The notes: generated by a model not told the origin, from the letters alone. Positions 3,853 through 64,000 are shown, counted from the stretch's first letter. The stretch: 64,000 nucleotides of DNA from a candidate division WOR-1 bacterium RIFOXYB2_FULL_46_45 (GCA_001771585.1 MEUE01000001.1:681984-745983); one strand, 5' to 3'. Translations and numbers: made by a program.

Positions 3853-3869
3853 GGTATAATAAGACAAGC

Positions 3870-43792: not shown

Positions 43793-44197
43793 TTAACCCA
43801 AAGCTGATTCAACCCATAAGATAAATCGTTCGGCATGCAAAACAACTTTTTCGGCTTCGTCTTTCGGAAAACACTTGCCCTCATATTCAATCAGATTTTT
43901 CTTTGCGATAAGGCGGCGCAAATGGTTCAGAGCATCCTTCGCTCCTTCCCTGTTTACCAGGGTGGCGGTTAATCCTATTGCGTCATCGTGACTTTTGCTG
44001 GTACTTCTTACCCCATGCAAACAGGCCAGAAGCGCGTCGTTGGCGGAAATTCCCGAGTGTACCGCGTCCAAACCGGCCGCATTCCAATTTTCCGCTTCCA
44101 GATTATCCTTGGCTGATTTAAAAAAGTCGCGGGCTTTCCTTAAAAAATTGATGGAACTTGATTTTTCTACTTTTGCGGTTTGAAACTTATTGACCAT
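43793..44197 (-). CDS. HEPN-domain protein (toxin of a HEPN/MNT type II toxin-antitoxin pair)
   Basis: Rx4-6H motif GVRSTSKSHDDA in a ~130-aa all-helical protein. Overlaps the upstream MNT gene by 11 nt. Start moved to MVNKFQ (44197) to remove the 110-nt overlap of the tabulated ORF. Confidence 0.65.
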   Translation of the reverse strand: MVNKFQTAKVEKSSSINFLRKARDFFKSAKDNLEAENWNAAGLDAVHSGISANDALLACLHGVRSTSKSHDDAIGLTATLVNREGAKDALNHLRRLIAKKNLIEYEGKCFPKDEAEKVVLHAERFILWVESALG

Positions 44198-44804
44198 ACA
44201 CCAATTCCATAATAGTTTTGCCGTACAACAGGCGGCCGCTTTCAACAATGTTTCTAAAAAAAGCGTTTTTACTCTTATATCTTTTCTTGATCTCATTCAC
44301 CGTGAGCGCCAGCGGCGAAATCCCATTCCCAAATTTTTTGGAAATATCAAAATTAAGATTATCAAATATTTTTTCGGCCGCCTCAAGGTCGGCATTTTGA
44401 GGAAAAACCACCAGCAAATCCAGGTCGCTGTTTTCTCCTTCCTTTCCCGCCGCAACACTGCCAAAAAGAATAATGGAGATAACGCGAGGAAAAGCGTTTT
44501 TAATTTTATCGGAAACCTTTTTCAGGAGTGTTTTTTCAAGTTTAAACAGCGGCAGAAGCGCTTCGGAAACCAGTATGTTTTCCGCGTTGATTCTATAAAG
44601 GTTGGATTTGCCGCTTTTGCGCATCAAAACGATTCCGGACTTAAACAGCGCCAGAAGCGACACATGGACTATCCGTTGCGCCAGGCCGGCCGATCGGGCA
44701 ATCTCTCTGCCGTTTAAATCTTCTCCGCTTTGAGCCAAAACCCTTAAAACCTTGAGCTTTGAACCCTGCCCTATAATACTGTTAAATGTTTGGTGGTAAC
44801 GCAT
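44187..44804 (-). CDS. minimal nucleotidyltransferase (MNT) with N-terminal winged-helix HTH fusion (antitoxin partner of HEPN)
   Basis: NTase motif IILFGSVAAGKEGENSDLDLLVVF (GS…DxD). The N-terminal 80 aa, SKLKVLRVLAQSGEDLNGREIARSAGLAQRIVHVSLLALFKSGIVLMRKSGKSNLYRI, has an ArsR/MarR-like wHTH pattern. Start moved to MRYHQTF (44804). Confidence 0.7.
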   Translation of the reverse strand: MRYHQTFNSIIGQGSKLKVLRVLAQSGEDLNGREIARSAGLAQRIVHVSLLALFKSGIVLMRKSGKSNLYRINAENILVSEALLPLFKLEKTLLKKVSDKIKNAFPRVISIILFGSVAAGKEGENSDLDLLVVFPQNADLEAAEKIFDNLNFDISKKFGNGISPLALTVNEIKKRYKSKNAFFRNIVESGRLLYGKTIMELVYGQ

Positions 44805-44929
44805 GGCTATTTTTGTAGCTATATGGCTACTTTTGTAGTTATTATAATCCAAGCTCAGCCTATTTGTCAAGTGCGAAAAACTGAAATTTCCCCCGGTTTT
44901 TGACGATAATAATATAGGAGGGAAAAGAG

Positions 44930-45688
44930 ATGCCAATGAACGTCCGTTTTAATTTAAGCCGCGGAAGAAGTTTCCTTTATCCTCTTGAAACTCTTCCGGT
45001 CAGGATAGCAACCTATTTAAACAGCGGAATTACAGTTAAAATCGGTTTTAGGCCCGAAGGAATCCTTTTTCACAATTCCGGACAAATAATACCGTCCACG
45101 CAAAGATTTAGCAAAAACTTCTTTCAACAAACATCTATTGCGGAAATATCTTTTAGGCCAAACATCAAAGATCCTTTTGATGGCGGAAAAAGGATCGGGC
45201 TTTTTTTGAGGACTGGCGACTTAAAACACATAAAACCTTTTTTGGGGGATATTGTGATTTTACCTCCCGCAGAACAAATTTTACATGATGCGAAACCAAT
45301 CATAAACACTCCCTTTGAATTAGGAACAATCCCGGGAGAGTTTAAGCATTATACCGACTTTAAAATGTTTTGCGCTATCTTGTCCGAACAAACAATTAAA
45401 GCCTTGGGCGGAAAAAAAGACAGAACTCCAAGATTGTGTTTTACCGACTTAAACCTAACTCCCGACAAGGTGTGCGATTATTTTTTTTCGGGGAGCCAAA
45501 GACATGCCAATGATTCGAGGGGGGATTATGTTTTAGGTTTCGATTTGCCACAAAGAACAAAAAGATTGATGGAGCAACCAAAGCCCGGTTCTCCTGAATA
45601 TTGGTTAAGAGAAAATATTAAATTTGGAGATAACGCGGAATTACGCTTTGCCGGTTATAATCCCTTTGCTTTAAGTGCCGTGGCTTAA
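44930..45688 (+). CDS. hypothetical protein (252 aa), convergent with and overlapping the ADP-ribosylglycohydrolase gene by 18 nt
   Basis: Long ORF with no recognised motifs. The strong RBS at 44920-44927 (GGAGGGAA) lies 2 nt before the tabulated ATG at 44930 and 8 nt before the ATG at 44936 (MNVRF…), so 44936 is the better-supported start. Confidence 0.45.
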   Translation: MPMNVRFNLSRGRSFLYPLETLPVRIATYLNSGITVKIGFRPEGILFHNSGQIIPSTQRFSKNFFQQTSIAEISFRPNIKDPFDGGKRIGLFLRTGDLKHIKPFLGDIVILPPAEQILHDAKPIINTPFELGTIPGEFKHYTDFKMFCAILSEQTIKALGGKKDRTPRLCFTDLNLTPDKVCDYFFSGSQRHANDSRGDYVLGFDLPQRTKRLMEQPKPGSPEYWLRENIKFGDNAELRFAGYNPFALSAVA

Positions 45689-46603
45689 AGAATATAATTT
45701 GTCGGCCTTCCTTAAGATTTCTCTTGCGCCCTCAACCTCTTTCCCCCAATGTTTCGGGATCGCCGCTTCCCCATGATAAGCCCCGCTCATGGCTCCAACC
45801 ATACTGGCAATTGTATCGGTATCTCCTCCGCAAGAAGCCGCTTCAACCAATACATTTTCAAAAGAATCAATAAATCTTAAAAAAAGATAAATACTGCTTC
45901 CAACACTTTCAAATACTATGCCGGAAGTTCCAATTTGCGACAAGGCAACAGAAGGAGACAGGTCTTGCGTCAAAAGATCTCCAACCTGGCGCAATTTATT
46001 AGCCATTTCTGAGTCGTCCCCAATATACCCAGCAGTTTCCCGCAAAATAATATTTTGTTCAAAGGTTGAATTAATTATTTTTGCGGTTATATAGGCGACA
46101 CTCAAACTTCCGTTAATGGCCTCCGGTTGTTTGTGGGTTATCATCGCGACAAGCTCGACATTTCTTTTTAGTTGCTCTAGGTTTGCGTAACTAAAAAGAG
46201 CGATCGGAGCAATGCGCATAGCCGCCCCGTTTCCGAGAGAATTATTGTCTCCAACCATATTCCAGGGCCTTCTCTTTAAAATTCTGGTCAGTGCCGTTAT
46301 GGTTGCTTGGCCAAACCCCCGCCCCAGATCCTTATTTTTTTTGAAAGCCCGGCCAAGATTTAAAGCGATATCGGCGGGATCAAGAGATCTTCTTCTAATC
46401 AAACTATCAACAGTTGCCTGTGTTAGTATGGTGTCGTCGGTTACTTGCCCCGCTCTTAATTTCCCTTTTGGGTGAGAATAAAAACGATCGATCCTTGCTC
46501 CACGGATCATCCCTTCGGCCGGCATACCAAGAGCATCCCCAATGGCAGAACCCAACAAGCATCCGCGAAAACGCTGAATAGGGGTTATATTTCTTATGCT
46601 CAC
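45671..46603 (-). CDS. ADP-ribosylglycohydrolase family protein (DraG/ARH-like)
   Basis: RFRGCLLGSAIGDALGMPAEG…D-rich metal-binding C-terminal motif (…GGDTDTIASMVGAMSGA…) is typical of ARH. Confidence 0.85.
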   Translation of the reverse strand: MSIRNITPIQRFRGCLLGSAIGDALGMPAEGMIRGARIDRFYSHPKGKLRAGQVTDDTILTQATVDSLIRRRSLDPADIALNLGRAFKKNKDLGRGFGQATITALTRILKRRPWNMVGDNNSLGNGAAMRIAPIALFSYANLEQLKRNVELVAMITHKQPEAINGSLSVAYITAKIINSTFEQNIILRETAGYIGDDSEMANKLRQVGDLLTQDLSPSVALSQIGTSGIVFESVGSSIYLFLRFIDSFENVLVEAASCGGDTDTIASMVGAMSGAYHGEAAIPKHWGKEVEGAREILRKADKLYSLSHGT

Positions 46604-49309: not shown

Positions 49310-50254
49310 TTATTTAATTGATTCCATCATTTGGAAGAGCGGTAAAATCATTGCGAACGCGATCACCCCGACTACCCCGCCGACCACAAGCGTCGACGCC
49401 GGTTCAACCAGTGTAACCCATTTCCGCGCCAAATTCTCCGTCTCCTCTTCGTAAAAAAGAGCCGATTGGACCAAAACTTCACAGAGCGATCCGCTCTCCT
49501 CCCCCACCCGTATTATCTCAAAAAACTCGGCCGGAAAAAGCGATCGATTATCCAGGCAGTCGGAAAATTTGCTCCCCTGCTCCAAAGAACGGGCGATTGA
49601 ATTAAGCGCCGCGGAATAAACGGGGCTTCCCAGGTTTTCCGCAACCATCCGCAGGGCGGAGAGGATCGGGACATTGCTTTTGAGCTGATAGCCGAGCCCG
49701 CGGCAAAGGCGCGCCAGAATTATATTCCGATAAAAGGGGAACTTTAGTTTGAAGGCTTCACTTTTAAACAGTTTCCAGGCCGTAAGGCCAATTGCAAAAA
49801 GAAAAAAAATAGGTAAAAACCACCAGTTTGAAACCTTAAGTAAAAGCCGGGTCAAAAGCGGAAGCTCATAATCAAATTCGGAAAAGATTCCCGCAAAAGT
49901 CGGCAGGATAAAGACCAATAAAAATATAATTGAAACCAAACTGACCGAGAGGACGATCGTCGGATACATCAGCGCTTTTTTTATCTTGTCGCGGGATACA
50001 ATCTCCGCTTCCAGGCGGCGGGCAACCCGGCCCAGGGCGTCTTCCAGATTACCGCTTTGTTCCCCCGCCCCAATCAGCGCCAAATCTTCCGCCGGAAAAC
50101 CGGCGGCTCGCAGGGAGTCGCTCAAAGTGATCCCATTTTCCAAAGATGCAACAATATCTTTTTTGTTAAGGATTGAAAGAGCCTTTGAAATCGGCAGGCC
50201 GGCGGAAAGCAGGCCCAGCAGTTGCTTATAAAAACTTAAAAAGCGTCCGCGCAT
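49310..50254 (-). CDS. type II secretion / type IV pilus platform protein, GspF/PilC family (short form)
   Basis: T2SSF-domain layout with 3 TM segments and …VGEESGSL… motif. 314 aa, which is shorter than canonical two-domain PilC. Confidence 0.7.
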   Translation of the reverse strand: MRGRFLSFYKQLLGLLSAGLPISKALSILNKKDIVASLENGITLSDSLRAAGFPAEDLALIGAGEQSGNLEDALGRVARRLEAEIVSRDKIKKALMYPTIVLSVSLVSIIFLLVFILPTFAGIFSEFDYELPLLTRLLLKVSNWWFLPIFFLFAIGLTAWKLFKSEAFKLKFPFYRNIILARLCRGLGYQLKSNVPILSALRMVAENLGSPVYSAALNSIARSLEQGSKFSDCLDNRSLFPAEFFEIIRVGEESGSLCEVLVQSALFYEEETENLARKWVTLVEPASTLVVGGVVGVIAFAMILPLFQMMESIK

Positions 50255-50993: not shown

Positions 50994-52472
50994 TTATTTT
51001 TCTAAGCGAGGGAATAAGGGATTTCCCTTCTTGACAATAGTCCCAGCAATTTTGCCGCCTGAAATGTTGAGCTGCTCAAGCATCTTGGCCGAGGTCTCCG
51101 GCATGAAGGGGGAAATTTGTTCCGCGATGGTTAAAAGGGCCGAAGCGAGGTTGAAAAGGACCTCTTTCAGCCGCTCTTCGTTCTCTTTCGCCAGTTTCCA
51201 GGGAGCTTCTTCTTCAATATAGCGGTTGGCGGTGCTGATCAGCTCCCAAATTGCCGTAAGCGCGTCCGAAAACTGCAATTTCGCCATCGCTTCTTCCACC
51301 CTTTTGGGAGTTTCTTCATTTAATATTTGAATTGTTGGGGCAGGACAATGTCCTGCCCTTACGGATTTCGGATTTTGGATCTTGGATTCACAGTATTTCT
51401 CTATCATATTCAACGTTCTATGCAGCAAATTCCCCAAATCATTCGCCAAATCGGAATTATATCTGGCCTTGAAGGCCTCCATCGAAAAATCGCCGTCGGC
51501 ACCGAAAGGAACTTCGCGCATCAGAAAATAGCGGACCGCGTCTGTCCCAAATTGATCGGCCAAAGCCAGCGGATCGACAACGTTCCCGACCGACTTCGAC
51601 ATTTTTTTGCCTTCCACCGTCCACCACCCGTGCCCAAAAACGGTTTTGGGGAGCGGAAGATCGGCCGCCATCAGCATGCACGGCCAGGTAACCGCGTGGA
51701 AGCGGACAATCTCTTTTCCCATCAAGTGGACATCGGCCGGCCAAAAGCCGTCCGGCGCGGCGGAGACATAGTTTATCAGAGCGTCAAACCAGACATAAAC
51801 GACATGCTTTGGATCTTCTTTCAGATTGATCCCCCAGGAAAAGGCGGTGCGGGTAACGGAAAGATCGCGCAGTCCCTGTTTTATAAAATTTATGATCTCG
51901 TTCCTGCGGGAAACGGGGAGGATAAAATCCGGATTTTCTTCTATGTGCCTTAAAAGCCGGTCCTGGTATTTGGAGAGCTTAAAAAAGTAGGTCTCTTCTT
52001 TTAAGGTTTTGGTCTCTTTTCCGCAGACCGGACAGAGCTTCCGTCCCTCCAGGTCTTCCTTAAGAGAACTCTCGGTGACAAAATTTTCGCAGGTTACGCA
52101 ATAGAGCCCTTCGTACTCCCCCTTGTAAATGTCCCCTTGCGCGATAAGTTTTGAAAAAATATCCCGGACAACTTTTTTGTGGCGCGGCTCGGTTGTGCGG
52201 ATAAAATCGTCGTTTGAGATGTTCAGTTTTTCCCAGGCGGCCTTGAAGCGCAAAACCAGTTCGTCGACAAATTCCTGCGGTTTCTTATCGCGCGCCAGGG
52301 CGGCATCGTATACTTTTTGTCCGTGCTCGTCGGTCCCGGTTAAGAAAAAGACCTCAAAGCCCTGCCGGCGCTTATAGCGCGCCAGGACATCAGCGGCAAC
52401 GGTGGTGTAGGCGTGGCCGATGTGGGGGATATCGTTGACGTAATAAATCGGGGTAGTGACATAAAATTTCAT
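50994..52472 (-). CDS. metG: methionyl-tRNA synthetase (short form without C-terminal tRNA-binding domain)
   Basis: MKFYVTTPIYYVNDIPHIGHAY (HIGH), KMSKS (KMSKSVGN), zinc knuckle CVTCENF…CPVCG. Confidence 0.9.
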   Translation of the reverse strand: MKFYVTTPIYYVNDIPHIGHAYTTVAADVLARYKRRQGFEVFFLTGTDEHGQKVYDAALARDKKPQEFVDELVLRFKAAWEKLNISNDDFIRTTEPRHKKVVRDIFSKLIAQGDIYKGEYEGLYCVTCENFVTESSLKEDLEGRKLCPVCGKETKTLKEETYFFKLSKYQDRLLRHIEENPDFILPVSRRNEIINFIKQGLRDLSVTRTAFSWGINLKEDPKHVVYVWFDALINYVSAAPDGFWPADVHLMGKEIVRFHAVTWPCMLMAADLPLPKTVFGHGWWTVEGKKMSKSVGNVVDPLALADQFGTDAVRYFLMREVPFGADGDFSMEAFKARYNSDLANDLGNLLHRTLNMIEKYCESKIQNPKSVRAGHCPAPTIQILNEETPKRVEEAMAKLQFSDALTAIWELISTANRYIEEEAPWKLAKENEERLKEVLFNLASALLTIAEQISPFMPETSAKMLEQLNISGGKIAGTIVKKGNPLFPRLEK

Positions 52473-53701
52473 TTTTTGTGCTTCCTTAGGAAATCCTCCA
52501 GTTCGGTCTCGTTGGCAAAGTCGGGAAAATCAACCATTTCCCCCTCTTCCCCTCTTTTCTGTTCCGGAAAAAAGGTATAAAAATCGTCCATGCTGATCCG
52601 GCGCTTCTCGGCCTTTCTTTTGGCAAAAAGCTGTTTGAAGAGCCCGGCGCGGTAGTCAAAAGAAAGATATATCTCTTTGTATTTTTCGATTAACCGCTGC
52701 AATATTTGATGGGAAGAGCGTTTCTCCATAACCCTTTTAATTGAAAGAAGAAGGTCTTCTCCGATAAAAGGATAAACGATGTAATCGTACGCCCCTTGCT
52801 TGATCGCCGAAACGGCGGAAGAAAAATCGTCAAAACCGGTGACAAAAATGACATCGGAAAAAGGATGTTCCTGTTTTATTTTTGTCAAGACGTCAAGCCC
52901 CGAAACATCGGGCAATCTGACATCAAGTATGACCAGTTCAAAACTTTGTTCCCGCAGCCGCTCAAAGACCTCTTTGCCGGAAGAGGCGTCTTCCAGTTTA
53001 TAAGCCGGCGCCAAAATATTTTTCAGCGCGTCGCGGATATCAACCGATCCGACCGCGATTAAGATGCTTGCCCCGTTTATCGGTTCAATCCCGGTCTTAA
53101 CATCCTTCTCCAATTTCTCCTTCAGTTTTTTGTAGCTGTAATCTTCTTCGGTTAAGACCGGAAAGTGAAAGAGGGTCTTTTCGTCCGCGTTGATGTCGCG
53201 CCCCTCCACCTTCCCCTTCATCTGCAGCTCTTGAAAAAGGAGCTGGCGGTGTTCAAAGACCAGCCGTTCGCGCTCCAGCCGGTCGGTCAAGTCGCTCAAT
53301 TTGCGGTTGTAATCCTTTTTCTCAAGAGCGCGCTTGATGGTGGCAACCAGGTCCCCGGCAAAAAAGGGCTTGGTGATGTAGTCGTAGGCCCCTTCCTGCA
53401 TGGCGGCGACGGCGGTTTTGACATCGGACAAGGCGGTCAGCATGATGATGTCCGGTTCCAAGTTTATTTCGCGCATTTTGGTTAGGATCTCTATCCCGTT
53501 CATGTCGGGAAGCCGGATATCGAGCAAAACGGCGCTCAAGCTGAACTGTTCGCTGTAATAGGTCCGAAGCGCCTTTTCTCCGTTCTCGGCGGTTAGGACC
53601 GTAAATTCGTCGGAAAGGAGTTCGGCCAGGTTTTGCCGCATATCGGGCTCGTCTTCAACGACCAACACCAGCGGTTTTTTGTTTTCTTTGAAGGGGGGCA
53701 T
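52469..53701 (-). CDS. response regulator with two tandem receiver (REC) domains and no recognisable output domain
   Basis: REC1 LVLVVEDEPDMRQ…LLDIRLPDMNG…TALSD…AYDYITKPF. REC2 ILIAVGSVDIRDAL…ILDVRLPDVSG…TGFDD…AYDYIVYPF. Stop overlaps the metG start. Confidence 0.75.
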   Translation of the reverse strand: MPPFKENKKPLVLVVEDEPDMRQNLAELLSDEFTVLTAENGEKALRTYYSEQFSLSAVLLDIRLPDMNGIEILTKMREINLEPDIIMLTALSDVKTAVAAMQEGAYDYITKPFFAGDLVATIKRALEKKDYNRKLSDLTDRLERERLVFEHRQLLFQELQMKGKVEGRDINADEKTLFHFPVLTEEDYSYKKLKEKLEKDVKTGIEPINGASILIAVGSVDIRDALKNILAPAYKLEDASSGKEVFERLREQSFELVILDVRLPDVSGLDVLTKIKQEHPFSDVIFVTGFDDFSSAVSAIKQGAYDYIVYPFIGEDLLLSIKRVMEKRSSHQILQRLIEKYKEIYLSFDYRAGLFKQLFAKRKAEKRRISMDDFYTFFPEQKRGEEGEMVDFPDFANETELEDFLRKHKK

Positions 53702-53751
53702 ATATATAGATTATAGAGCAATCAAAAAGCGGTAGCAAGGGTCATAGTTTG

Positions 53752-56700
53752 CTATCCGGGGTGTTTTTCCAACAGTGCTCTCAACCGGCCCAAGAAATCC
53801 GCGGTATCCATTATGGTGGTTTTTGCCAGATGGTTGGTGTTTAATCTTTTTGACAATCCGTTATCTTGCGAACTAAACCATGTCCTTAACGCCGCCAATT
53901 CGGCAAGGTCGTTACTATTGTCATCTCTAATCCTTTGTTGCAATATTCCCATGTCCCGAACAATTCCTTTAACAAGGGATCCGGTTGAGCCGTTTCCGTC
54001 CGATCCCAAGCGCATTGCACTACGCACCGTATCCCATGTAAAATTTTTTCCGAAATTTAAATTGTGCCCGCTCAAATATCTTTGGTGGGCATAAAGCCAA
54101 TTTTCCTTTTTTTCTTCCCAACCCCTATTGGCCCGAAGAAATGCCTTTTTCTCCCGCATCGGCTTGCCAAGAGAAATACGCTTCATCTCTTCGCCGACGC
54201 CGGTACGAATAAATACTTTTACTTTTTTTCTGTGCCTTCCAAAAATTCTCCGCAATCTCCTTAACGTCTTATGGCTGATATGTTCGCCTTGAAAATTTAA
54301 GGTTACTCCGCCAATCTCGCCGCGCTCCATTCTTTTTGCCAAGTTCCCGCAATAAGCAGTCAAGTTAATTAAAAAAGCCCTTGGATCTCCCAAATCACTT
54401 GTAGAAAAAACTCTTGATACTTCCGGAAGTTCCGTTTTTTTTGCTTCCGGGACATCTTCTTTTTGAGTAACGCTTTGTTTGCTTCCATCATATATCAGCT
54501 TCCTCCCGCTCACTTTTTCTCTGGCCTCGTTTCTTTCCGGAATAGGATTGGCGCGCTGGTATATCTTGACCCGATCGTGGAAATCTGGCGGGATCAATTT
54601 TAACAAAGCATCGATTGCCGACGGATCTATTGTGGGAGCATTGATATTTAACTCCAAACGGTTAATTGTCCCCCTTTTCAAGGCCTCGCCGTATTTGGCA
54701 ATTTGAGAAGCCAATTTATAAACCCGATCTTTTTCCTCCCCCAATCGGTTCTTTGGAAAGGTTGCTGGATAGAGTATTTCCAAAAGTCTCCTTTTATCAA
54801 AAGAAGAAAGCTTTTCTTTTCTTTTCATTCTATCAATAAACTCCGTTTCTTCTTTTGCTAAAGCAAGTAACCCTTGTTTGTTTTTTCTTTCTATTATAGA
54901 AACGAGCTCTGTTTTATTGATATTATCTTTAAAAGCATTTAATTCTTCGATTGTTTGTGCTGTTAGGTTAGGAAAATCTGTTTTTATAGCATTGCACAGG
55001 GCAGAAAGAGTGTACCAGCTTTCATCAAATTCCTCCGAAAGCAAATCGGTTGAACCAACCACTTCTCCTCGAATCCAACCGAGGCTCATACGGCTTTTTT
55101 CTTCAATTAATGTTTTGCTCCCCGCTCTCCATCCGTCCCCCTGAATTATTTCGGTTTTCCTTTTTGTGTCCCCAGGACGCACTACGATATTGCCCCCTCT
55201 TTTAACCTCAACGACCGGAAGGGAAAATTCAATCTCTCCAACCTGTCTGTTGACTTCAGTAATTGGATCTTCCGTCTTGTTCTGCTCGTCTTCAACAACC
55301 GCCGCCAAACCGATTGTTTCGTAAATTTCCCCAAAAAATTCTATTTGGGCTTGTCTTTTTGATCCGTTTGTTGCCCTCTGTAATTGCTCCGCCAATCTCC
55401 CAATCTCTTCAAAAATTCCGACAACTTCTGCTGACGGAATATGCCCTTGCAACAACGCCGAAGCGGCATATCTCAAACCCTCTGTTTGAGGGCCGGATAA
55501 AACAGAAGAAATTTTCGTATTAATCAGGTTTTTTATTTTTTCGACATCCGCAGGCGGAATTCTACCGGCTTCAACCGGAGTTTTTCTCCTTCTAATCGGC
55601 GCTTCAGGTGCGGGAGGAGGAAGAACTTCCGCCACAGCCGGCCTCTCCGGAAAAGCCCTGGCAAGAAAATCTTCCGATGATCCCGCCTGCCTCCTCCCTA
55701 TCTCATAATTTACTACCGAATAATCTGCCGCGGTTTTTATAATATTTTCTGCCGCTACTATTAACGACTCTTCATTCCTTCTTGCCCCGCCCAATTTAGA
55801 CAATAATTTCCTTAATTTTCTTTTCCCGCCTTTTATGACCAAAAGCATAACAATGGCATCCCTCAATTCTTCTTCTTTCTTTAATGCGTTCCCAAATAAA
55901 TATTCAGAAATTATTCTGTCAGCTGTTTCTTCCGCTTCAAATCGGTCTTCTTCCTGCGGCAGGATATCCTCCTCTGTAGGCACCTCCTGCAATGGTCCCG
56001 TTAAGGGCCCTACGGGGGTCATCGTAACCGGAATCGGTTTAATCGGAAGATCAACAGGAACGGGCTCGCCATTTCTATCAACGATATCGGTCGTTAGCTT
56101 TGAAATTCCCCCTGTTACGGATATTTCTGCCGGTTTATAAACCGGTTCCGGAACAACGGCAGAAGTATCTGCTTCGATAACTGCCGGGACAGAAACCGGA
56201 ACAGAAGCAGGAGCGGGCGCAACCGGAGCAGGCTCAGAAAACGCCTTAAAAACCGGAAGTTGAACTTCAAGGACTGCCATTGATTTGGCAATTAGATTTT
56301 TTTTGCTCAAAATTTGGGGCAACTGATCAATTATTGTCCTCTGAATAATTGCCGGAATTTCCTCAATAAAACTATCCGCCGATTGTATCGCATCAATAAT
56401 TTCGGTAACTTTTTCATGTAAAAGCAAATAATAATACGGAGAAAGGCTTTTGCCAAGATACGCCCGCAGATCCGTAATCACTTCTCTTCGTGATGGTTCC
56501 TGGCTTTCCGCAACCGCTATTTGTTCCGCTCCCGATATAAGCGTTTCCAGGGTCAGCTCAACTCCAAAACCGCGATAAAGAACCTTTTTCTGCTCCGGAA
56601 GACCATTTGTCGCAAAATCCCTGATAGCCGTCCTTAATTCGTCAAAACTTTCTGCCATCGCGGTATAAGCGCTTATTTTTTCCCGCGGAGTCGCTGTCTC

Positions 56701-57057
56701 CTCCGGCCTTTCCCTTAATGCCGCGTTAAACTTTTCCACCAATGAAACATACCGTGAACGAAAGGACCGGTCTGTTATATGCCTGGTTAAACAATGCAAC
56801 GGGGTTCTCTGTTGAGCAATAAAATTAAAATCGTTTTCTGTCGGCGCTCCAATGCCGCTTACGTCAACCCCCATATTTTTTAAAGCCAGAAGAGCGTCCG
56901 GATCGCCATTTTGGGCATAATCCATTAATCTTGCCTGGATACGATCCACTCCGCCGGCCGCCCCCTCACCTAAATTCCGGTTAATCGCCGGTAATTTATT
57001 TTGATATGCGGCAAAATCCGCCCGTCTTGCAAAAAACTTCCGAATAAAAACGCTCAT
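53752..57057 (-). CDS. large hypothetical protein (1101 aa), soluble, with Pro/Val-rich linkers (…PAPVAPAPASVPVSVPAV…); 4th gene of a 4-gene cluster of unknowns
   Basis: Uninterrupted 3.3-kb ORF. Start overlaps the upstream gene's stop (ATGA at 57054). No Walker, TM or known catalytic motifs recognised. Confidence 0.6.
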   Translation of the reverse strand: MSVFIRKFFARRADFAAYQNKLPAINRNLGEGAAGGVDRIQARLMDYAQNGDPDALLALKNMGVDVSGIGAPTENDFNFIAQQRTPLHCLTRHITDRSFRSRYVSLVEKFNAALRERPEETATPREKISAYTAMAESFDELRTAIRDFATNGLPEQKKVLYRGFGVELTLETLISGAEQIAVAESQEPSRREVITDLRAYLGKSLSPYYYLLLHEKVTEIIDAIQSADSFIEEIPAIIQRTIIDQLPQILSKKNLIAKSMAVLEVQLPVFKAFSEPAPVAPAPASVPVSVPAVIEADTSAVVPEPVYKPAEISVTGGISKLTTDIVDRNGEPVPVDLPIKPIPVTMTPVGPLTGPLQEVPTEEDILPQEEDRFEAEETADRIISEYLFGNALKKEEELRDAIVMLLVIKGGKRKLRKLLSKLGGARRNEESLIVAAENIIKTAADYSVVNYEIGRRQAGSSEDFLARAFPERPAVAEVLPPPAPEAPIRRRKTPVEAGRIPPADVEKIKNLINTKISSVLSGPQTEGLRYAASALLQGHIPSAEVVGIFEEIGRLAEQLQRATNGSKRQAQIEFFGEIYETIGLAAVVEDEQNKTEDPITEVNRQVGEIEFSLPVVEVKRGGNIVVRPGDTKRKTEIIQGDGWRAGSKTLIEEKSRMSLGWIRGEVVGSTDLLSEEFDESWYTLSALCNAIKTDFPNLTAQTIEELNAFKDNINKTELVSIIERKNKQGLLALAKEETEFIDRMKRKEKLSSFDKRRLLEILYPATFPKNRLGEEKDRVYKLASQIAKYGEALKRGTINRLELNINAPTIDPSAIDALLKLIPPDFHDRVKIYQRANPIPERNEAREKVSGRKLIYDGSKQSVTQKEDVPEAKKTELPEVSRVFSTSDLGDPRAFLINLTAYCGNLAKRMERGEIGGVTLNFQGEHISHKTLRRLRRIFGRHRKKVKVFIRTGVGEEMKRISLGKPMREKKAFLRANRGWEEKKENWLYAHQRYLSGHNLNFGKNFTWDTVRSAMRLGSDGNGSTGSLVKGIVRDMGILQQRIRDDNSNDLAELAALRTWFSSQDNGLSKRLNTNHLAKTTIMDTADFLGRLRALLEKHPG

Positions 57058-58112
57058 TCTCCCCCCAACAAAGCGGCCTCAATCTCTCTTCTTTGTCGCA
57101 AAATTTCAGGAATTCCGGCCAGAGCGGCGGAAAATCTTTCGTTTTCCATCGCGAAGAACAAATGGATATATCCTTTGTCCAAAAATTGATCGATTGTCTC
57201 TTTAAGTTCAGCGATTGTTTGTATGTTTGGAAGGTTAAAGAAGCTGATGTCCCCCTCCGCCGCTTCTCCTTCTGCTAAAACAGAGTTAAGAATCTCGATT
57301 TTTTTAACCTGTTCGGCACTTATGCTTCTGCAAGTTAAAGCGCCGTTTTCCCAAACAACAGCCGGCGCCACAGCCGGATGAAAAGCAAGGATTGCCTTGT
57401 TAATTTCTTTCTGAATTTTGTCCGTGACTTCTTCCCGCAAACGTCGTCGCGGCCAAGAAATGGAATATTGGGATACCAGGGCCACTTCATTTTCATAGCC
57501 GCGCTTCCCGACCATGGATAACAGCCGATGGATAGAACAGTCCAAAAGCGGAGGGAGTTCCGATTTTAAATATTTTTCAATGTCTTCTATGAGCGCCACC
57601 CTGACCTCCTCCGATTTTTTGTCTGTTGATAACTCACGCAAGGCATCGAGAACTCCCCGCGTCGTAATTCTTATTCCAAATAATTCCTTTAGAACCTCCT
57701 TTCTTGGCGGAGGAGAGTATTGTTTGATCGCGAACAACAGGGTATCTCTCATGCCGTCTGCCGCTATAATCGCTTTATCATAAAGGGGAACCTTTTCTTC
57801 TTCTGTTTTGCTTATATCATATGCTTTATGGCAATCATCAACCTCAAGCGTTTGCCCTCTTAAGTGGTCCAGGGTTTCTTGAACGCAAAAATCTTCCGCT
57901 ACACTAAAAAGATCATCGGTAAACTTATTGAGCCGGTTAAAGTTTTCCGGGGAATGGACAAAAAAGTTCGCGAACCCGCCAATTTGAGAAGCATAACCGC
58001 CCCGCGCCAGGCCGGGATGGTTGGCTCTAAATTCTTTCAGCGCCTGAATTCGCCCCTGTGCGGCTGAGATTCTTTGGGGATAGGTTAGTTTAATTGGACT
58101 TGCTTGAGTCAT
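57054..58112 (-). CDS. hypothetical protein (352 aa); 3rd gene of the cluster
   Basis: ORF translationally coupled to the downstream gene. No motifs recognised. Confidence 0.55.
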   Translation of the reverse strand: MTQASPIKLTYPQRISAAQGRIQALKEFRANHPGLARGGYASQIGGFANFFVHSPENFNRLNKFTDDLFSVAEDFCVQETLDHLRGQTLEVDDCHKAYDISKTEEEKVPLYDKAIIAADGMRDTLLFAIKQYSPPPRKEVLKELFGIRITTRGVLDALRELSTDKKSEEVRVALIEDIEKYLKSELPPLLDCSIHRLLSMVGKRGYENEVALVSQYSISWPRRRLREEVTDKIQKEINKAILAFHPAVAPAVVWENGALTCRSISAEQVKKIEILNSVLAEGEAAEGDISFFNLPNIQTIAELKETIDQFLDKGYIHLFFAMENERFSAALAGIPEILRQRREIEAALLGGE

Positions 58113-58158
58113 TCTCTTCCTCCTTACATATATCGTGCGTTTGTGGAAAAAATTTCAC

Positions 58159-60297
58159 TTATCCGGCAAGTAACCGCGGATTAACCAGTCCGAAAAAAAA
58201 GCGGTCTTCCGGGGTGTCCGCCAAAAATTCCCCCTCCTGCCTTTTTCTCAGGTAAAAAAACAGGCTTGTTGAAAATTGGGCCGGATCCTGGACCGGATAC
58301 GCGGCGCGCCGCGCGTCCGACAAAAAATAATGCCAGATGATCCTTCCCATCGCGTCATGAAACAGAGGAAGCGCGTCATAAATTAATACCGGATCTCCGC
58401 TGTTTAAGATCTGTATCCCCCAATAGTCAAGGGAAAGTGCTTTTTTCTCGCCATCAAAATGGATAAAGGGAGACATTGTCTCCCTGTTTTTTTTAAATAA
58501 TGAAACCACATCATAAACATCCTTATCTTGGTACCCTGTCCGTCTTCTTTGGTTCTTAATAAGCATTTCAATGCCCCTCAACATATGAGCGGGATAAAAA
58601 CCGAAAAAATCGTCAAAAAATTTCAATTCGGACAAAGTGAAAAGGGCATCAAGGTTTAGATCCAGTTCAATGCCGTATTTTTCTTTTATTTGCTTCCTTT
58701 TTTTTCCTATTTCCGTAACCTTCCCGGGGTTTTTCTCTCGATCTTCCCTCATCCGCAGGCGGGCAACTATTTCAAATGTAATTTGATCCGGAATTTTTTT
58801 TGTCCGCATATCAGCAACTTTTAACGATGATATCTCCCGCAGCCGCTCCAAAATTATTTCTCTTGCTTCCGCGGAATAAGGGACTATTTCTGTCTTTTGA
58901 GAACCATCTTCATAGAAAATTACTCCGCGCTCATTAAAAAACACGTGACAAAACATCGGATCTTCACAAAGCAGCATCTCCGGAACTTTTTCGGCAAGGC
59001 CGCACAGGCCGACTATTTCCCTAATGTCCATTTCCCGCCCGTTTATCCCGTAATAAAAAACCTTGTTGTCAAAAAACGGTACAACCTCCCCTCTTTCTTG
59101 TGAAAGGCCAAGAAGGCGGTCGAGCCCGATGATCAAGAAGGCTGTTTTTCCGGCTTTGACAAAATTTCTTTGTTTGGTGGTCTGTTGTGCGCACCGTTTC
59201 AATAATTGAACTGCCTCCCAGTGGGCGAAGGACAAAACCATCCTATACATTTCCGAATCGGTTGTAACCGCTATGGCCAATTGGCGAAAAAGATCTCCCG
59301 ACTCTCTTGAAAATCCGCCCCCTTTTTTTAATCCCCAAAAGGTCATCTTCCCCAGCTTATCCGGCACTCCCGCCCACTGATCTAAAATACTAATTAAAGC
59401 CAGATTTTCGTAGGGGATAGCTGCGGCTTCGCTAATGGAAGAAAAACCGAGTTTTCTTGCCCCTTCTTCCGCCGATGCCAATTTCAGGATTTCATCCACC
59501 AATACCGTTACCGCTCCCCGCAGTTGAGGCAAAACTTCTTCCACAAACCGGTCAAGCAAAGAACTCTGAAGCTGTTCCGCCTGTTCCCGCGCCTGGCCGG
59601 CCGGGATCAAAGCGCGGGTTATTTGGGAAAAGGACTCTCTTTCGGAGGAATTAATTAATCGTTCCAGCAAAGCTTGCCTGTTTGATTTTTGTTTCAAGTA
59701 TTCGCCTTCGACGTTTTTTAGCTCCAAACCAATCGCTCTTATCTTTTCCCCCAGACAAGCACGGGACAAGCCCAATGGGGATTCTTCTTTTAAGATACGG
59801 CGGCTTACGCCAATAAAATCTTCAATATAAAAACCCCGCGGGGGGGATCCGATATTTTTTAGTTCCGACTTAAAAACCGACAGCATTATCAAAAGCCCGA
59901 TCAGCCCCTCTTCTCCCGCCAGCGCGATAAGCCGAGGGGAATAGTTTTCTATTCCACAACAATGGAGCTGATCACCCGTCTCATAAAAATACGTTTCAAT
60001 TCTATGATTAACCGATAATTCTCTACAAAAAGCGGCTACCGCTATCGTCATGGCGCGGACGGCGATCCGGTTGAAATCGTTTCCCGCCTGGTTAGATCTT
60101 GTAATACGGCTAATTCCTATTGATATCTGGCCGACAACTTCGGAAAGGTTTTCGTCCCGTAAAAGGCGCGCGGCAAGGCCGGGACGCGCAAAAAATGCCA
60201 GTGAATTTAATGATGTTGCCGTAAGGACCATTTGGGCGTGGGAAGAAACGCTCCCTTTTACCGTTTGCCAATTCCCGGAAACGGGGAAAACTGGCAT
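58159..60297 (-). CDS. large hypothetical protein (712 aa); 2nd gene of the cluster
   Basis: 2.1-kb ORF. Separated by 3 nt from the upstream gene. No motifs recognised. Confidence 0.6.
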   Translation of the reverse strand: MPVFPVSGNWQTVKGSVSSHAQMVLTATSLNSLAFFARPGLAARLLRDENLSEVVGQISIGISRITRSNQAGNDFNRIAVRAMTIAVAAFCRELSVNHRIETYFYETGDQLHCCGIENYSPRLIALAGEEGLIGLLIMLSVFKSELKNIGSPPRGFYIEDFIGVSRRILKEESPLGLSRACLGEKIRAIGLELKNVEGEYLKQKSNRQALLERLINSSERESFSQITRALIPAGQAREQAEQLQSSLLDRFVEEVLPQLRGAVTVLVDEILKLASAEEGARKLGFSSISEAAAIPYENLALISILDQWAGVPDKLGKMTFWGLKKGGGFSRESGDLFRQLAIAVTTDSEMYRMVLSFAHWEAVQLLKRCAQQTTKQRNFVKAGKTAFLIIGLDRLLGLSQERGEVVPFFDNKVFYYGINGREMDIREIVGLCGLAEKVPEMLLCEDPMFCHVFFNERGVIFYEDGSQKTEIVPYSAEAREIILERLREISSLKVADMRTKKIPDQITFEIVARLRMREDREKNPGKVTEIGKKRKQIKEKYGIELDLNLDALFTLSELKFFDDFFGFYPAHMLRGIEMLIKNQRRRTGYQDKDVYDVVSLFKKNRETMSPFIHFDGEKKALSLDYWGIQILNSGDPVLIYDALPLFHDAMGRIIWHYFLSDARRAAYPVQDPAQFSTSLFFYLRKRQEGEFLADTPEDRFFFGLVNPRLLAG

Positions 60298-60300
60298 TAT

Positions 60301-61542
60301 TTATTCCTCATCAAACGACTGTGGATCCGCAAAATCTTCCCATATCTCCCTAAACGAATCTCCCCTAGTACTACGATCAAATAAGCCTCCCCCCGGGGTC
60401 CTATGATTAGGAATTTCCTCCGGCGCGGGCAAAAAGTGGCTCGGCAAAATTCCTTTTATGATTTCCATTAGCTGGTTTATTCCAACCACCGGATGCTCAA
60501 TCCCTTCTTCTATTTTTTCTCTGTGTTCTCCTATAAAAAGAAGCAAATAACGCGCCTTCGCATTATTTTCGGAGGTCTTGAATAACTTGATCAAGACCTC
60601 TCTCATTTTCTCTGCCCTAAGCGAGCATAATCTCTGCAACATCAGGATCAATATCTCCTCTATTGCTTCTTCTTTTCTTATTCTATCCTCGTACCGCTCT
60701 TCTGCCCGACCTGTGCTTCCAAATCCCCGATTCCGCTCCCGAAGCCATCTTCCTGCCTGTCTCACTCCGGCTCTTTGAGCCGCCAAAAAATCTGAAACAT
60801 TATTTAGCGCAGTCGCAATTCTTTTAGAATCCGCGTACTCCAGCACTCTGGGCAAAAGGTCCGATGTCCGATTTTCTCCTGCCGATAAAACCGCTTGCAA
60901 TACGCTTCCGTTTAAAAATGGAGCAACTTTTTCAAGCATTGCTCCTTGTGTTGCAATCGCTCCTAATACTGCCGTCTTTGCTTCCGGTGCTTGAACTCTA
61001 GCAACAAGACCGGCGCATTGTTTTGGTTTTAATGTAGAAAAGAACTTTCCCAACAACTCCGGATCTACCAATCCAAGAAGCTTTTCTCTTTTAACTAAAG
61101 CTCTTCCTATCGATTCCGGGGAGCTCCCTCCTTCCCCTGCAATTGATCTAAAAACATCTTCCCCTCTTTGCGCGGGAACCGGCAATACTTCCGGCTCCTC
61201 CACCCGTTCTGCCTGCAGCTCAACAACTGCGGGCACCGGAACCACAACTTCTTCTATTATAGGCATCTGTGCTTGAAAAAACGCTTTTAAGCCGGCAGAA
61301 TCCAATTTTTGGTCTAGCGTTTCAACCTGAACGGGAGGGATTTGCCCTTCTAAAGGATTAATTTCCAATAAAGAAACCGAAACTGCCCGCACAAATTGCG
61401 CCGACAGCCCGCTCTTGCCAATCTCCGTAACAAGATTACCTAACGCAAGCAACCGCAGATCCTGCTCCCCGATTTTTACCGGAACCTTCAACCTCGAAAA
61501 TAACGGATTCGATCCTGATCTTACAATGCTTGAACCTGACAT
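60301..61542 (-). CDS. hypothetical protein (413 aa) with acidic C-terminus (…DFADPQSFDEE); 1st gene of the cluster
   Basis: ORF. Upstream AGGAGG-like sequence (tcaaggaggtaaatttattATG). No motifs recognised. Confidence 0.55.
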   Translation of the reverse strand: MSGSSIVRSGSNPLFSRLKVPVKIGEQDLRLLALGNLVTEIGKSGLSAQFVRAVSVSLLEINPLEGQIPPVQVETLDQKLDSAGLKAFFQAQMPIIEEVVVPVPAVVELQAERVEEPEVLPVPAQRGEDVFRSIAGEGGSSPESIGRALVKREKLLGLVDPELLGKFFSTLKPKQCAGLVARVQAPEAKTAVLGAIATQGAMLEKVAPFLNGSVLQAVLSAGENRTSDLLPRVLEYADSKRIATALNNVSDFLAAQRAGVRQAGRWLRERNRGFGSTGRAEERYEDRIRKEEAIEEILILMLQRLCSLRAEKMREVLIKLFKTSENNAKARYLLLFIGEHREKIEEGIEHPVVGINQLMEIIKGILPSHFLPAPEEIPNHRTPGGGLFDRSTRGDSFREIWEDFADPQSFDEE

Positions 61543-61626
61543 AATAAATTTACCTCCTTGATTATGATATATTTATATCGTACCCTTTTCCAAAAAATTT
61601 CACTTAAACTGTGTTATAATATCTTT

Positions 61627-62604
61627 GTGAGGATTCTAGCCCGTCTTATTCTTCTGCTTCTAATCCTTGCTCCACCCGCTCTTGCTATGGGAACTCCGCC
61701 TTCAACACAACCGGTTAAACAACTTTATCCGCAAGTGGAATATGCCGGGATGTTCGGCTATGCCGGCTCCGGCGACGGGCAGTTTTATTATCCCAAAGCG
61801 GTCGACGTCCCCGCCTTCGGAGATCTAACCACCGACGTCGGCAATGTCTTTGTGGCCGACACCGGCAACAACCGGATACAACGGCTGAATCCGGACGGCT
61901 CCCCGGTTTATCAGTTCGGATTCTTCGGGAGCGGAGGAAAAGAATTTAATGCCCCGTCCGGAATCGCGATTGATTTCAATCATTTTATCTTCGTAAGCGA
62001 CAAAGAGAACCATCGGATCCAGAAATTCGATATTTACGGCAACTTTATCTCCGCCTGGGGAAGCTTCGGCACCGAAAAGGGACAGTTCAGAAGCCCCCGA
62101 GGGATCGCCCTCGATTACTGGGGAAATGTCTACGCCGCCGATGTTGAGAACGACCGGATCCAAAAATTCGACCTGAACGGAAATTATATGCAGAGCTTCG
62201 GCGCCTTCGGGGTCGGCGGAGGATTTTTCGACAACCCCTCCGATGTGGCGGTCGACCGCGACCGGAATATTTTTATCGCCGACACCAACAACCATCGAAT
62301 ACAAGTAATAGACGAATACGGCCAGCCGCGCCTCTCTTTTGGAGGATTTGGAGGAAAGGCGGGCCAGTTTGATTTTCCCCAAGGGATCGCGATTAACGAC
62401 GACATCATCTGCGTGGCCGACACGGGCAACAACCGGATCCAGGTCTTCGACAAGCGCGGAAATTTTCTGCTCCTGTTCGGGGAAAAGGGATCAAATCCCG
62501 GACAATTTATGGAACCGGTCGGCCTGGCATTCGGCGCCGGAAAAATCCTGTATGTTGTTGATTCAAGGAACCAGCGGATCCAAAAGTTTCAATTAAGGTA
62601 CTGA
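61627..62604 (+). CDS. exported NHL-repeat beta-propeller protein
   Basis: Six NHL-type blades (…FVADTGNNRIQRLNPDG…, …FVSDKENHRIQKFD…, …YAADVENDRIQKFD…, …FIADTNNHRIQVID…, …CVADTGNNRIQVFD…, …YVVDSRNQRIQKFQ). Signal peptide (R)ILARLILLLLILAPPALA. Start is uncertain. The tabulated ATG at 61558 would make the promoter-like TGTTATAAT (61612-61620) coding. GTG at 61627 is an alternative. Confidence 0.7.
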   Translation: MRILARLILLLLILAPPALAMGTPPSTQPVKQLYPQVEYAGMFGYAGSGDGQFYYPKAVDVPAFGDLTTDVGNVFVADTGNNRIQRLNPDGSPVYQFGFFGSGGKEFNAPSGIAIDFNHFIFVSDKENHRIQKFDIYGNFISAWGSFGTEKGQFRSPRGIALDYWGNVYAADVENDRIQKFDLNGNYMQSFGAFGVGGGFFDNPSDVAVDRDRNIFIADTNNHRIQVIDEYGQPRLSFGGFGGKAGQFDFPQGIAINDDIICVADTGNNRIQVFDKRGNFLLLFGEKGSNPGQFMEPVGLAFGAGKILYVVDSRNQRIQKFQLRY

Positions 62605-62659: not shown

Positions 62660-64000
62660 ATGAGGATACTATTAACTATTTCGGCTCTTCTGGCGGCGCT
62701 CGCCGTTTTCGCGGCGGCGGCACCCTTTTACGAGTCGGCCGATTTCAGCATAAACTTCAGCCCCGACTACCCGCTCATAATCGGAAAAGAGACGCAGATT
62801 AAAGTCGTAAGCCCAATCACGGCCCGAAGGGTCACCGCGGTCTTTGACAACGAGGATAAGGTCCGGCTTAATTTTGAAAACGGATCCTGGTTGGGAAAAT
62901 ATCTCATCCCTGCCGATTTTGAATCGGGCTGGCACCCCTTGAATATTTATTTTGTCAAAAAGGCGGAGGCGGAACCAAACCTCTTTCAAAAATTTTTCTT
63001 CTTTATCCGCCTGCGTAGCCCGGAACCAAAATACAAAGACACTTTGATCAAACGCTCCATGAATATCCGGATCTTTAAGCAGGAAGAGTTAGATGCGAAT
63101 CCGTTACTCCTCTCTTCTTCTTATCCGAGCAACGAGGCGGAGGTGGTCCTTCACATTGAAAGAGCCACCTTGGAAGGGTATCAGGAGATCGGGGGGGAAC
63201 CCGAGGGAGCGACGCTGGATGAATTATTGGGAAAGCCGGTCAGCAAAGAGGCTTTTCCGTTGCGAATCAAGGGGAGCCGAATTTTCACCTTCAACCAGAA
63301 GACCGTGGAGGGGACAAAAGAATCGTATCTCCCCGGAGCCGGCCGGGAAGAATCGTTGAGGATCAATGTCAGCGGAAAAATGGACGGGACCGAGATCGAC
63401 GCCAATTTCTTTTCCACCTCCAGCTTGAGCACGACGCAAACTTCAACCCGCGAAGAAAAAGTTTCAATTTTATTGCGGCGCGGGTCGCTTGAAGCGTATA
63501 TGGGGGACTTTACCGCCGACTTGAACGATACCGAATTTACTCCGCTCACCCAGCTAATCTCCGGAATACGGATACAGGGAGAAAATAAATACGGCGGTTT
63601 CAAGGCGATTGTTTCAACTCCAAAAGGGAGCGCCAAAATCACCCGGCTGTACGGAAACGGGACCCAGGGCCCGTACTATCTCACCCCCGCTCCGGTCGAG
63701 GTCGACAGCGAACGGGTCTATTTGAACGACCTGCTCCAAAAACGGGGGGATGAATACACGATCGACTACAACGCCGGAACAATCACATTCAGAAAAAAGA
63801 CCTTGATCTCCACCGACATTATTGAAACCTATTACAACTATCGTGAAACAATCTACCAGCACGGGCTTTATGCTTTCCGCGGCTATGTCAAACCGAGCGA
63901 CCGCTTGAGGATCGGGGCAAGTTATATTAACGACTCGGACTCGCTCCAAAATGCCCAAAGTATCCAATCACAAACCGGAGCCAACCCAAAAAGCCACCAG
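62660..64000 (+). CDS. exported hypothetical protein, 5' portion (447 codons, runs off the window end); not in the supplied ORF track
   Basis: ATG at 62660 followed by signal peptide MRILLTISALLAALAVFAAAAP. Frame 2 stays open for 1341 nt to the window edge. The antisense and off-frame ORFs listed for this region (62672-62989, 63093-63359, 63181-63642, 63614-63967) are shadows. Confidence 0.65.
   Translation, partial: MRILLTISALLAALAVFAAAAPFYESADFSINFSPDYPLIIGKETQIKVVSPITARRVTAVFDNEDKVRLNFENGSWLGKYLIPADFESGWHPLNIYFVKKAEAEPNLFQKFFFFIRLRSPEPKYKDTLIKRSMNIRIFKQEELDANPLLLSSSYPSNEAEVVLHIERATLEGYQEIGGEPEGATLDELLGKPVSKEAFPLRIKGSRIFTFNQKTVEGTKESYLPGAGREESLRINVSGKMDGTEIDANFFSTSSLSTTQTSTREEKVSILLRRGSLEAYMGDFTADLNDTEFTPLTQLISGIRIQGENKYGGFKAIVSTPKGSAKITRLYGNGTQGPYYLTPAPVEVDSERVYLNDLLQKRGDEYTIDYNAGTITFRKKTLISTDIIETYYNYRETIYQHGLYAFRGYVKPSDRLRIGASYINDSDSLQNAQSIQSQTGANPKSHQ

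Follow-up and report, generated by a model that had tools for sequence, protein, structure and literature searches.

A candidate PD-(D/E)xK nuclease gene in a fast-evolving four-gene cluster of a candidate division WOR-1 bacterium

In candidate phyla, it is common to find new PD-(D/E)xK nuclease families as well as orphan genes, and insertions into the PD-(D/E)xK fold usually tune substrate or partner binding; in the RecB/Cas4/AddB-type branch, the helix after the ExK element is marked by a QxxxY motif. Here, we analysed a cluster of four head-to-tail open reading frames (ORFs), named P1 to P4, on the minus strand of a 64,000-nucleotide stretch of DNA (the window) from the candidate division WOR-1 bacterium RIFOXYB2_FULL_46_45 (GCA_001771585.1, MEUE01000001.1:681984-745983). 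In our best estimate, with a probability of roughly 0.55, the cluster is a lineage-specific operon that combines a fast-evolving PD-(D/E)xK nuclease gene (P4) with species-specific additions.

The four genes are ORF calls, as follows.

60301 to 61542, minus strand: P1, 413 amino acids (aa), acidic (pI 5.6), first gene of the operon
58159 to 60297, minus strand: P2, 712 aa, species-restricted orphan
57054 to 58112, minus strand: P3, 352 aa
53752 to 57057, minus strand: P4, 1101 aa, multidomain

A first-pass annotation had listed four minus-strand ORFs of these lengths, about 2,580 aa together, and the coordinates and lengths are exactly confirmed (2578 aa in total). It had also described the four proteins as lacking recognisable domains. 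For sequence-based hidden Markov model libraries this stands, as P1 to P4 gave no meaningful match in Pfam, NCBIfam, PADLOC or PHROGs, even at E<=10; moreover, they matched 0 families among the PADLOC-DB 2.0 defence models at E<=1 and had no match among the Protein Data Bank (PDB) sequences using phmmer. It does not stand for P4, in which a family alignment and a structural model together point to a PD-(D/E)xK fold, i.e. to remote similarity to a well-characterised superfamily.

A predicted nuclease core in P4

An exhaustive phmmer search with P4 against 1.84 billion representative proteins returned nine proteins at E<=1e-3. These are a strain variant of P4 (P0002), five family members (P0003, P0007, P0008, P0009, which is the 856-aa protein L7_856 described below, and P0010) and three unrelated multidomain proteins that align to P4 residues 671-775 only. 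When P4 and A2, an alignment of three proteins, were used in word-indexed searches of 5.8 billion proteins, nothing was retrieved besides the query or its strain variant. The family members are all unannotated, and P0007 is from Candidatus Margulisiibacteriota. So far, the P4 family has been seen only in Saganbacteria (WOR-1) and Margulisbacteria-type genomes.

Seven family members share a core of ~190 residues that, with the insert in P4 spliced out, is 23-32% identical to P4. Six columns of this alignment are invariant in all seven members (G576, E580, D641, E652, K654 and Q785), and Y789 is present in six of the seven and replaced by Cys in P0010. At the sequence level, this conservation corresponds to E...D...ExK, the pattern known from PD-(D/E)xK nucleases, with Q-x-x-x-Y after it.

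While a single-sequence AlphaFold2 (AF2) model of full-length P4 was unusable (predicted local distance difference test score (pLDDT) of 43), a model of residues 560-1101 based on a 9-row alignment had a mean pLDDT of 80.4 (77.6-80.4 among five models). In this model, the invariant E580 lies within the long first helix (model residues 8-32), D641 (model residue 82) is positioned directly ahead of a strand (83-85), and E652 and K654 (93 and 95) are inside the following strand (90-96). After the insert, a helix bears Q785, K788 and Y789 and is followed by the hydrophobic strand RLELNIN. An acidic residue on the first helix, which contributes to the active site in a subset of families, Asp at the beginning of the second core strand and Glu/Asp-x-Lys within the third are what defines the fold and active site of the superfamily (PMC3424549). 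Based on the alignment and the model, we assign to P4, with fair confidence, a PD-(D/E)xK nuclease domain whose catalytic set is intact, and we regard P4 as representing a new family of this superfamily. P4 thus gains a concrete prediction, namely that of a metal-dependent nuclease with the catalytic residues E580, D641, E652 and K654.

Neither P4 nor its core matched a nuclease family in Pfam or NCBIfam at E<=10; similarly, the family profile and the other profiles used (A2, A3 and A5 in all) found nothing relevant among the PDB sequences, and a Foldseek search with the model of residues 560-1101 gave no meaningful match in PDB or BFVD. Undetectable sequence-profile similarity is usual for the PD-(D/E)xK superfamily (PMC3424549). 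The 980-aa database variant P0002 corresponds to P4 without residues 548-668 (121 aa, in frame; 55054-55416, minus strand), and the deletion removes E580, D641, E652 and K654, a caution that catalytic activity may be dispensable. The edges of the deletion form an imperfect direct repeat (GCAGAAGTTGTCGGA / GGAGAAGTGGTTGGT), both copies of which encode EVVG; the deletion could reflect either genuine variation within the population or an error of assembly. We consider it rather unlikely that the likeness is structural only or spurious, with P4 being a non-catalytic scaffold or the fold an artefact of a model built on a shallow alignment.

From its N terminus, P4 consists of a helical domain, a Pro/Val linker, a helical region, a split PD-(D/E)xK core, a half-duplicate and a C-terminal helical bundle.

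56407 to 56694, minus strand: N-terminal helical segment in common with P3 (residues 122-217)
55963 to 56250, minus strand: Pro/Val-rich linker (residues 270-365), predicted coil
55054 to 55362, minus strand: nuclease core, part 1 (residues 566-668), with helix alpha1 (G576, E580), a beta-meander, D641 and E652-x-K654
54733 to 55047, minus strand: inserted five-helix module of ~100 aa (residues 671-775; helices within model residues 125-203, pLDDT 84-96)
54553 to 54732, minus strand: nuclease core, part 2 (residues 776-835), with helix alpha2 (Q785, Y789, basic residues), strand beta4 RLELNIN, a helix and a strand
54172 to 54423, minus strand: degenerate duplicate of the core's second half (residues 879-962), without the Q and the Y, specific to P4
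53755 to 54159, minus strand: C-terminal helical bundle (residues 967-1101), kept in L7_856, P0007, P0008 and L8_848

The codons for Q785 and Y789 are at 54703-54705 and 54691-54693, respectively. The wider N-terminal region of P4 (residues 44-329) is common to L7_856/P0009, which shares the same region with P0007. Pro/Val-rich linkers had been noted in the 1101-aa protein before; they are real, and both the one at residues 270-365 (from the sequence and from DSSP of the single-sequence model) and a second one at about residues 470-500 are predicted to be coil. The duplicate is recognised from the phmmer domains of the relatives, which fall on both P4 773-835 and 895-1019, and from a P4-only block in the alignment; in the model, it is formed by the strands and helices E320-326, H333-352, E358-364, H370-386 and E387-392.

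The insert is located between the ExK strand and the Q helix and is absent from the other family members. Sequences 30-40% identical to it occur in three other proteins, one with TPR and GH8 domains, one with TPR and one, from Margulisiibacteriota, of the SNF2-helicase/methyltransferase type. The module covers residues 535-650 of P0004, 296-408 of P0005 and 310-425 of P0006, and its invariant motifs are EF..E, LC..I..D, I..LN.F and RRLLE..Y....P. It had no match in Pfam or, as a profile, in the PDB. Judged by this distribution, the module looks like a mobile domain that moves among a nuclease, glycoside-hydrolase/TPR proteins and an SNF2 helicase-methyltransferase; in P4, it would tune substrate or partner binding.

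As a separate observation, three co-directional proteins without a Pfam domain (209, 1147 and 389 aa; L107 5109-10456) are encoded 3' of the module-bearing SNF2 helicase-methyltransferase gene of Margulisiibacteriota. None of the three is similar to P1 to P4, and together they form a further cluster of large genes without characterised products in this phylum group.

Gene organisation and the companions of P4

The junctions described in the first-pass annotation were confirmed by reading them off the sequence. P1 and P2 are separated by a 3-nucleotide (nt) gap (TAA-ATA-ATG, 60295-60303, minus strand) and are in one frame, P2 and P3 by 46 nt, P3 and P4 overlap in ATGA, and 50 nt separate P4 from the next gene, which encodes a response regulator (RR). 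A Shine-Dalgarno (SD) motif is present at all four starts, i.e. AAGGAGGT positioned 8 nt 5' of the start of P1, GAGGA for P2, AAGGAGGA for P3 and GGGGGGAGA for P4. Just 5' of the P1 SD motif is the following site.

61564 to 61593, minus strand: promoter-like site of the operon, TTGGAA-18-TATCAT, a consensus match only

Promoter-like sites of this type are not more frequent in the region than in shuffled sequence. No terminator signal above background was found within the cluster or ahead of the RR gene. P1 to P4 are probably co-transcribed.

The listed TTG start of the NHL-repeat gene on the plus strand (61558-61700) overlaps the P1 promoter and SD motif. A GTG at 61627 would yield a typical signal peptide (MRILARLILLLLILAPPALA), has TGTGTTATAAT 6 nt upstream and may be a leaderless-type start.

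At 46% GC, the lengths of the four ORFs cannot have arisen by chance. Moreover, their codon bias is 0.13-0.24 bits per codon in frame 0 and negative in both other frames. The GC content at third codon positions (GC3) of P1 to P4 is 0.40-0.47 and, thus, below the window mean of 0.53 ± 0.07, and their codon scores are also lower. Two further stretches of the window (3843-6736 and 44187-46603) resemble the cluster in their low GC3 (0.34-0.47). As previously stated, none of the four proteins contains a transmembrane segment or a signal peptide (maximum 19-residue Kyte-Doolittle mean < 2.0), and they are probably cytoplasmic. Secreted or surface proteins are ruled out on the same grounds.

P3 is the companion of P4 for which a relationship was found. 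Residues 102-198 of P3 resemble residues 122-217 of P4 (BLASTP E=0.001; phmmer E=6e-6 in a 7-sequence database).

57519 to 57809, minus strand: segment of P3 homologous to the N-terminal helical domain of P4 (residues 102-198)

Judged by this similarity, P3 is a paralogue of the N-terminal domain of P4. P3 had no match in Pfam, NCBIfam, PADLOC, PHROGs, PDB sequences or plasmids, and the large protein databases were not searched with it; the nuclease-core profile had no similarity to P3 by hhalign. The orthologous locus L008 contains a comparable pair, in which a 330-aa protein (L008 8957-9949) resembles the N terminus of its own 848-aa neighbour (E ~5e-6). P3 and the 330-aa protein have no detectable likeness to each other, and the order of the small and the large gene is reversed between the two genomes. 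This pattern suggests independent duplication or concerted evolution of the small slot proteins, from which we infer a functional tie between the small protein and its large partner. P3 would have arisen by duplication of the N-terminal helical domain of P4, and it would bind or regulate P4.

P1 and P2 are orphans. P1 had no relative in Pfam, NCBIfam, PADLOC, PHROGs, PDB sequences or plasmids, the large protein databases not having been searched, and no match by tblastn in 1.37 Mb of related loci. It is the sole member of its 90% cluster and is carried unchanged in four NCBI genome records. In a word-indexed search of 5.8 billion clustered proteins, P2 matched only itself, and it had no match in Pfam, NCBIfam, PADLOC, PHROGs, PDB, phages, plasmids or IMG/VR. 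A hypothetical protein of candidate division WOR-1 (Saganbacteria) bacterium RIFOXYA12_FULL_43_27 has the identical sequence, and 22 contigs from groundwater samples of the Rifle type carry P2 without a change. Using hhalign, the nuclease-core profile had a probability of 0.2% with P2 and no similarity to P1. Neither protein has a counterpart in the slots of the two orthologous loci or in the 1.37 Mb of other related loci. In our proposal, P1 and P2 would be species-specific additions to the nuclease gene.

Alternatively, P1 and P2 could be remnants of one gene of ~1127 aa split by a nonsense mutation, or otherwise decaying, non-functional ORFs. They share one frame with only TAA-ATA between them, neither has a detected homologue, and their codon scores and GC3 are below those of typical host genes. 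However, P2 has its own SD motif with proper spacing, the two long ORFs contain no interruption and show a clear codon bias in frame 0, and neither the 22 contigs with P2, which come from several samples, nor the four records with P1 contain a change; moreover, a shared frame is expected by chance for one in three pairs of adjacent genes. We regard such decay as highly improbable.

A fast-evolving slot in conserved surroundings

A locus search that took the conserved RR as its anchor in species-representative genomes yielded two orthologous loci, namely L007 (a Saganbacteria metagenome-assembled genome) and L008; when metagenome contigs were scanned with the RR alignment as the anchor, no orthologous locus emerged. 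In L008, the neighbourhood is intact and consists of ruvA, ruvC, a gene for a 1027-aa secreted protein, an NHL-repeat gene, the slot that is occupied by P1 to P4 in the window, the RR gene, metG, tatD and pilC. Identities between the proteins of the window and of L008 are as follows.

RuvC: 77%
RuvA: 64%
1034-aa protein: 58%
NHL-repeat protein: 59%
RR: 59%
MetG: 79%
TatD: 71%
PilC: 50%
slot proteins: 22-26%

The slot of L008 holds two genes (848 and 330 aa), and that of L007 holds an 856-aa gene directly ahead of the RR gene, with no small paralogue seen. Using phmmer, P4 matched L7_856 with 52 bits in several collinear pieces, and L7_856 matched L8_848 with 28 bits. As judged from these protein comparisons, the chromosomal position is conserved, and the analysis shows that what the slot contains changes several-fold faster than the flanking genes and that species-specific genes are added there. 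A prophage or mobile island is ruled out by the syntenic housekeeping flanks and the ordinary GC content.

Elsewhere, the gene for P0007 adjoins radA, that for P0003 is located amid rpe, ribD and the gene for a PASTA kinase, and that for P0012, a fuller form of P0008, is 5' of relA/spoT and close to priA. Among the neighbours of the P4 relatives that lack a Pfam domain (415, 306, 885, 879, 702/731, 209, 1147 and 389 aa), none is P1-, P2- or P3-like; the 702/731-aa neighbour is RelA/SpoT. Across the loci of the relatives, it is, by sequence comparison, the P4-type gene alone that is conserved.

The RR gene is treated as a neighbour and not as a demonstrated part of the cluster.

52469 to 53701, minus strand: RR of 410 aa, comprising two REC domains and, at the C terminus, a short conserved tail
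53710 to 53738, minus strand: promoter-like site in the gap between P4 and the RR gene, TTGCTA-17-TATAAT, 10/12 matches, with the -10 box ending 8 nt ahead of the RR ATG

Pfam and NCBIfam agree with the earlier description of a two-receiver regulator without an output domain followed by metG; no Pfam domain besides the two REC domains was found, and the genes after the RR gene are metG, tatD and pilC. RR orthologues in L007 and L008 are 59-61% identical. Because the RR gene has its own promoter-like site and no SD motif, it is probably on a separate, possibly leaderless, transcript. Terminator-like sites between P4 and the RR gene are at background level, and read-through from P4 is possible. 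A P4-like gene is adjacent to the RR gene in three of three Saganbacteria-type genomes and in zero of three other informative contexts (L101/L102, L103 and L106), and the adjacency within the three genomes may be simple synteny.

These observations bear on the proposal in the first-pass annotation that P1 to P4 may be an undescribed multi-protein system, such as a cytoplasmic assembly, an effector set or a signalling scaffold, and on the reading that such a system is conserved and acts together with the tandem-REC regulator. The junctions are tight, with two of them being of the coupling type (the 3-nt gap and the ATGA overlap), no terminator signal above background was detected inside the cluster or ahead of the RR gene, and a P4-like gene adjoins the RR orthologue in all three Saganbacteria-type genomes. 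However, P1 and P2 are not in the orthologous slot of either related genome, P2 is absent from the 5.8 billion proteins beyond itself, P4 relatives elsewhere adjoin radA, relA or rpe with unrelated neighbours, and the RR gene has the promoter and start features described above. We consider such a conserved system very unlikely. The genes are undescribed in that they are in no curated family library; they may encode a multi-protein system. The four genes do not co-occur elsewhere, an outcome that the first-pass annotation had itself named as counting against its proposal, and the slots of L007 and L008 hold only a P4-like gene with or without a small paralogue. The link to the regulator is weak, and the signalling scaffold finds no support.

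Further genes of the neighbourhood are noted for annotation. The 1034-aa secreted protein (plus strand, 62660-64000 and past the window; L001 4534-7638) has a signal peptide and no Pfam domain and, unlike the slot genes, is well conserved. The PilC/GspF-like gene (minus strand, 49310-50254) encodes a short protein of 314 aa covering positions 67-400 of the GspF model and shares sequence with the tatD end; a pilin-like N_methyl gene and a gene of the 23S-rRNA-IVS family come after it (L001 21006-21871).

Possible role and comparison with known nuclease systems

In the lineage-specific operon that we favour, P4 would act as a metal-dependent phosphodiesterase on nucleic acid, with DNA as the probable substrate. 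Cleavage would occur via the two-strand Asp/Glu-x-Lys metal site with E580 assisting, the inserted module and the helical arms would supply substrate or partner recognition, and P3 would contact P4 through their common helical domain.

A different role for the P4 family would be that of a housekeeping, structure-specific repair or recombination nuclease, like Hjc, NucS or Vsr, with the other genes of the operon being incidental. Every family member is encoded within 10 kb of ruvCA, radA, priA or ruvB; this was noticed post hoc and is weak, and by a rough estimate approximately one third of 20-kb windows hold such a gene by chance. Moreover, such enzymes are normally well conserved, yet identity is only 22-26% in this family as against 50-79% for its neighbours, and the natural variant P0002 is without the catalytic half. 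We regard a repair function as unlikely.

Because the slot diverges extremely relative to its flanks, we suggest genetic-conflict-type selection, e.g. for a defence or toxin-like function. Similarly, the divergence of restriction enzymes has been attributed to arms races (PMC3424549). A Saganbacteria-specific nuclease-based conflict or defence system, in which P4 would be the effector with a swappable helical module for specificity or docking, P3 a decoy or regulator, and P1 and P2 newly evolved controllers, is consistent with the divergence of the slot, which is several-fold higher than that of the flanks, with the species-specific accessory genes and with the mildly atypical codon usage; against it, PADLOC finds no known defence component. 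We consider a complete system of this kind doubtful. If true, the slot between the NHL-repeat gene and the RR gene would be a hot spot of accessory-gene birth and loss.

None of this overturns current understanding. A new PD-(D/E)xK family limited to two sibling phyla of the Cyanobacteria, as predicted here, would be of value mainly for the annotation of these lineages and for cataloguing nuclease and defence diversity.

Comparison with described nucleases places the favoured reading in context. Toxin nucleases were represented by the Tox-REase-5 effectors TseT (7dym) and PA3907 (9oz0) and by CdiA-CT (4g6v). Unlike polymorphic toxins, P4 has neither a signal peptide nor a secretion-associated N-terminal domain, its predicted nuclease is internal (residues 566-835 of 1101) instead of C-terminal, and its gene is inherited at a fixed locus. 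Moreover, P4 is not followed by a recognisable immunity gene, the next gene being that for the RR, and no type VI secretion system (T6SS) or contact-dependent inhibition (CDI) genes are nearby, with no secretion-system marker found by Pfam or NCBIfam.

With anti-phage PD-(D/E)xK systems, such as Hachiman HamA and restriction enzymes, the P4 locus would have in common the superfamily, fast evolution, variable accessory genes and slightly atypical codons. It differs from them in the lack of a PADLOC match for P1 to P4 and of neighbouring defence genes, in the vertical inheritance of the slot, and in that the cluster revealed no partner of the methyltransferase, helicase or ATPase type.

The P4 family resembles the RecB/Cas4/AddB-type nucleases in its Q-x-x-x-Y on the helix after the ExK strand (Q785, Y789). 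Membership of P4 in this group was considered and rejected, as only this motif fits and the closest structural neighbours are not RecB, AddB, Cas4 or lambda-exonuclease domains, whether carrying a Cys4 iron-sulfur cluster or not.

The closest correspondence is with the PD-(D/E)xK superfamily as a whole. The predicted core of P4 has the same order of helix, strands, helix and strand, the same acidic residue on helix 1, Asp opening a core strand and Glu-x-Lys on the next strand, and the same basic second helix followed by a hydrophobic last strand; large insertions are tolerated and extreme sequence divergence is typical in this superfamily. The P4 family is different in that it has no profile-level similarity to any described family, in that it is limited to two candidate phyla, and in that its core lies within proteins of 850-1100 aa that have long helical regions at both termini and linkers rich in Pro; in P4 itself, the core is split by the ~100-aa helical module and followed by the degenerate half-duplicate.

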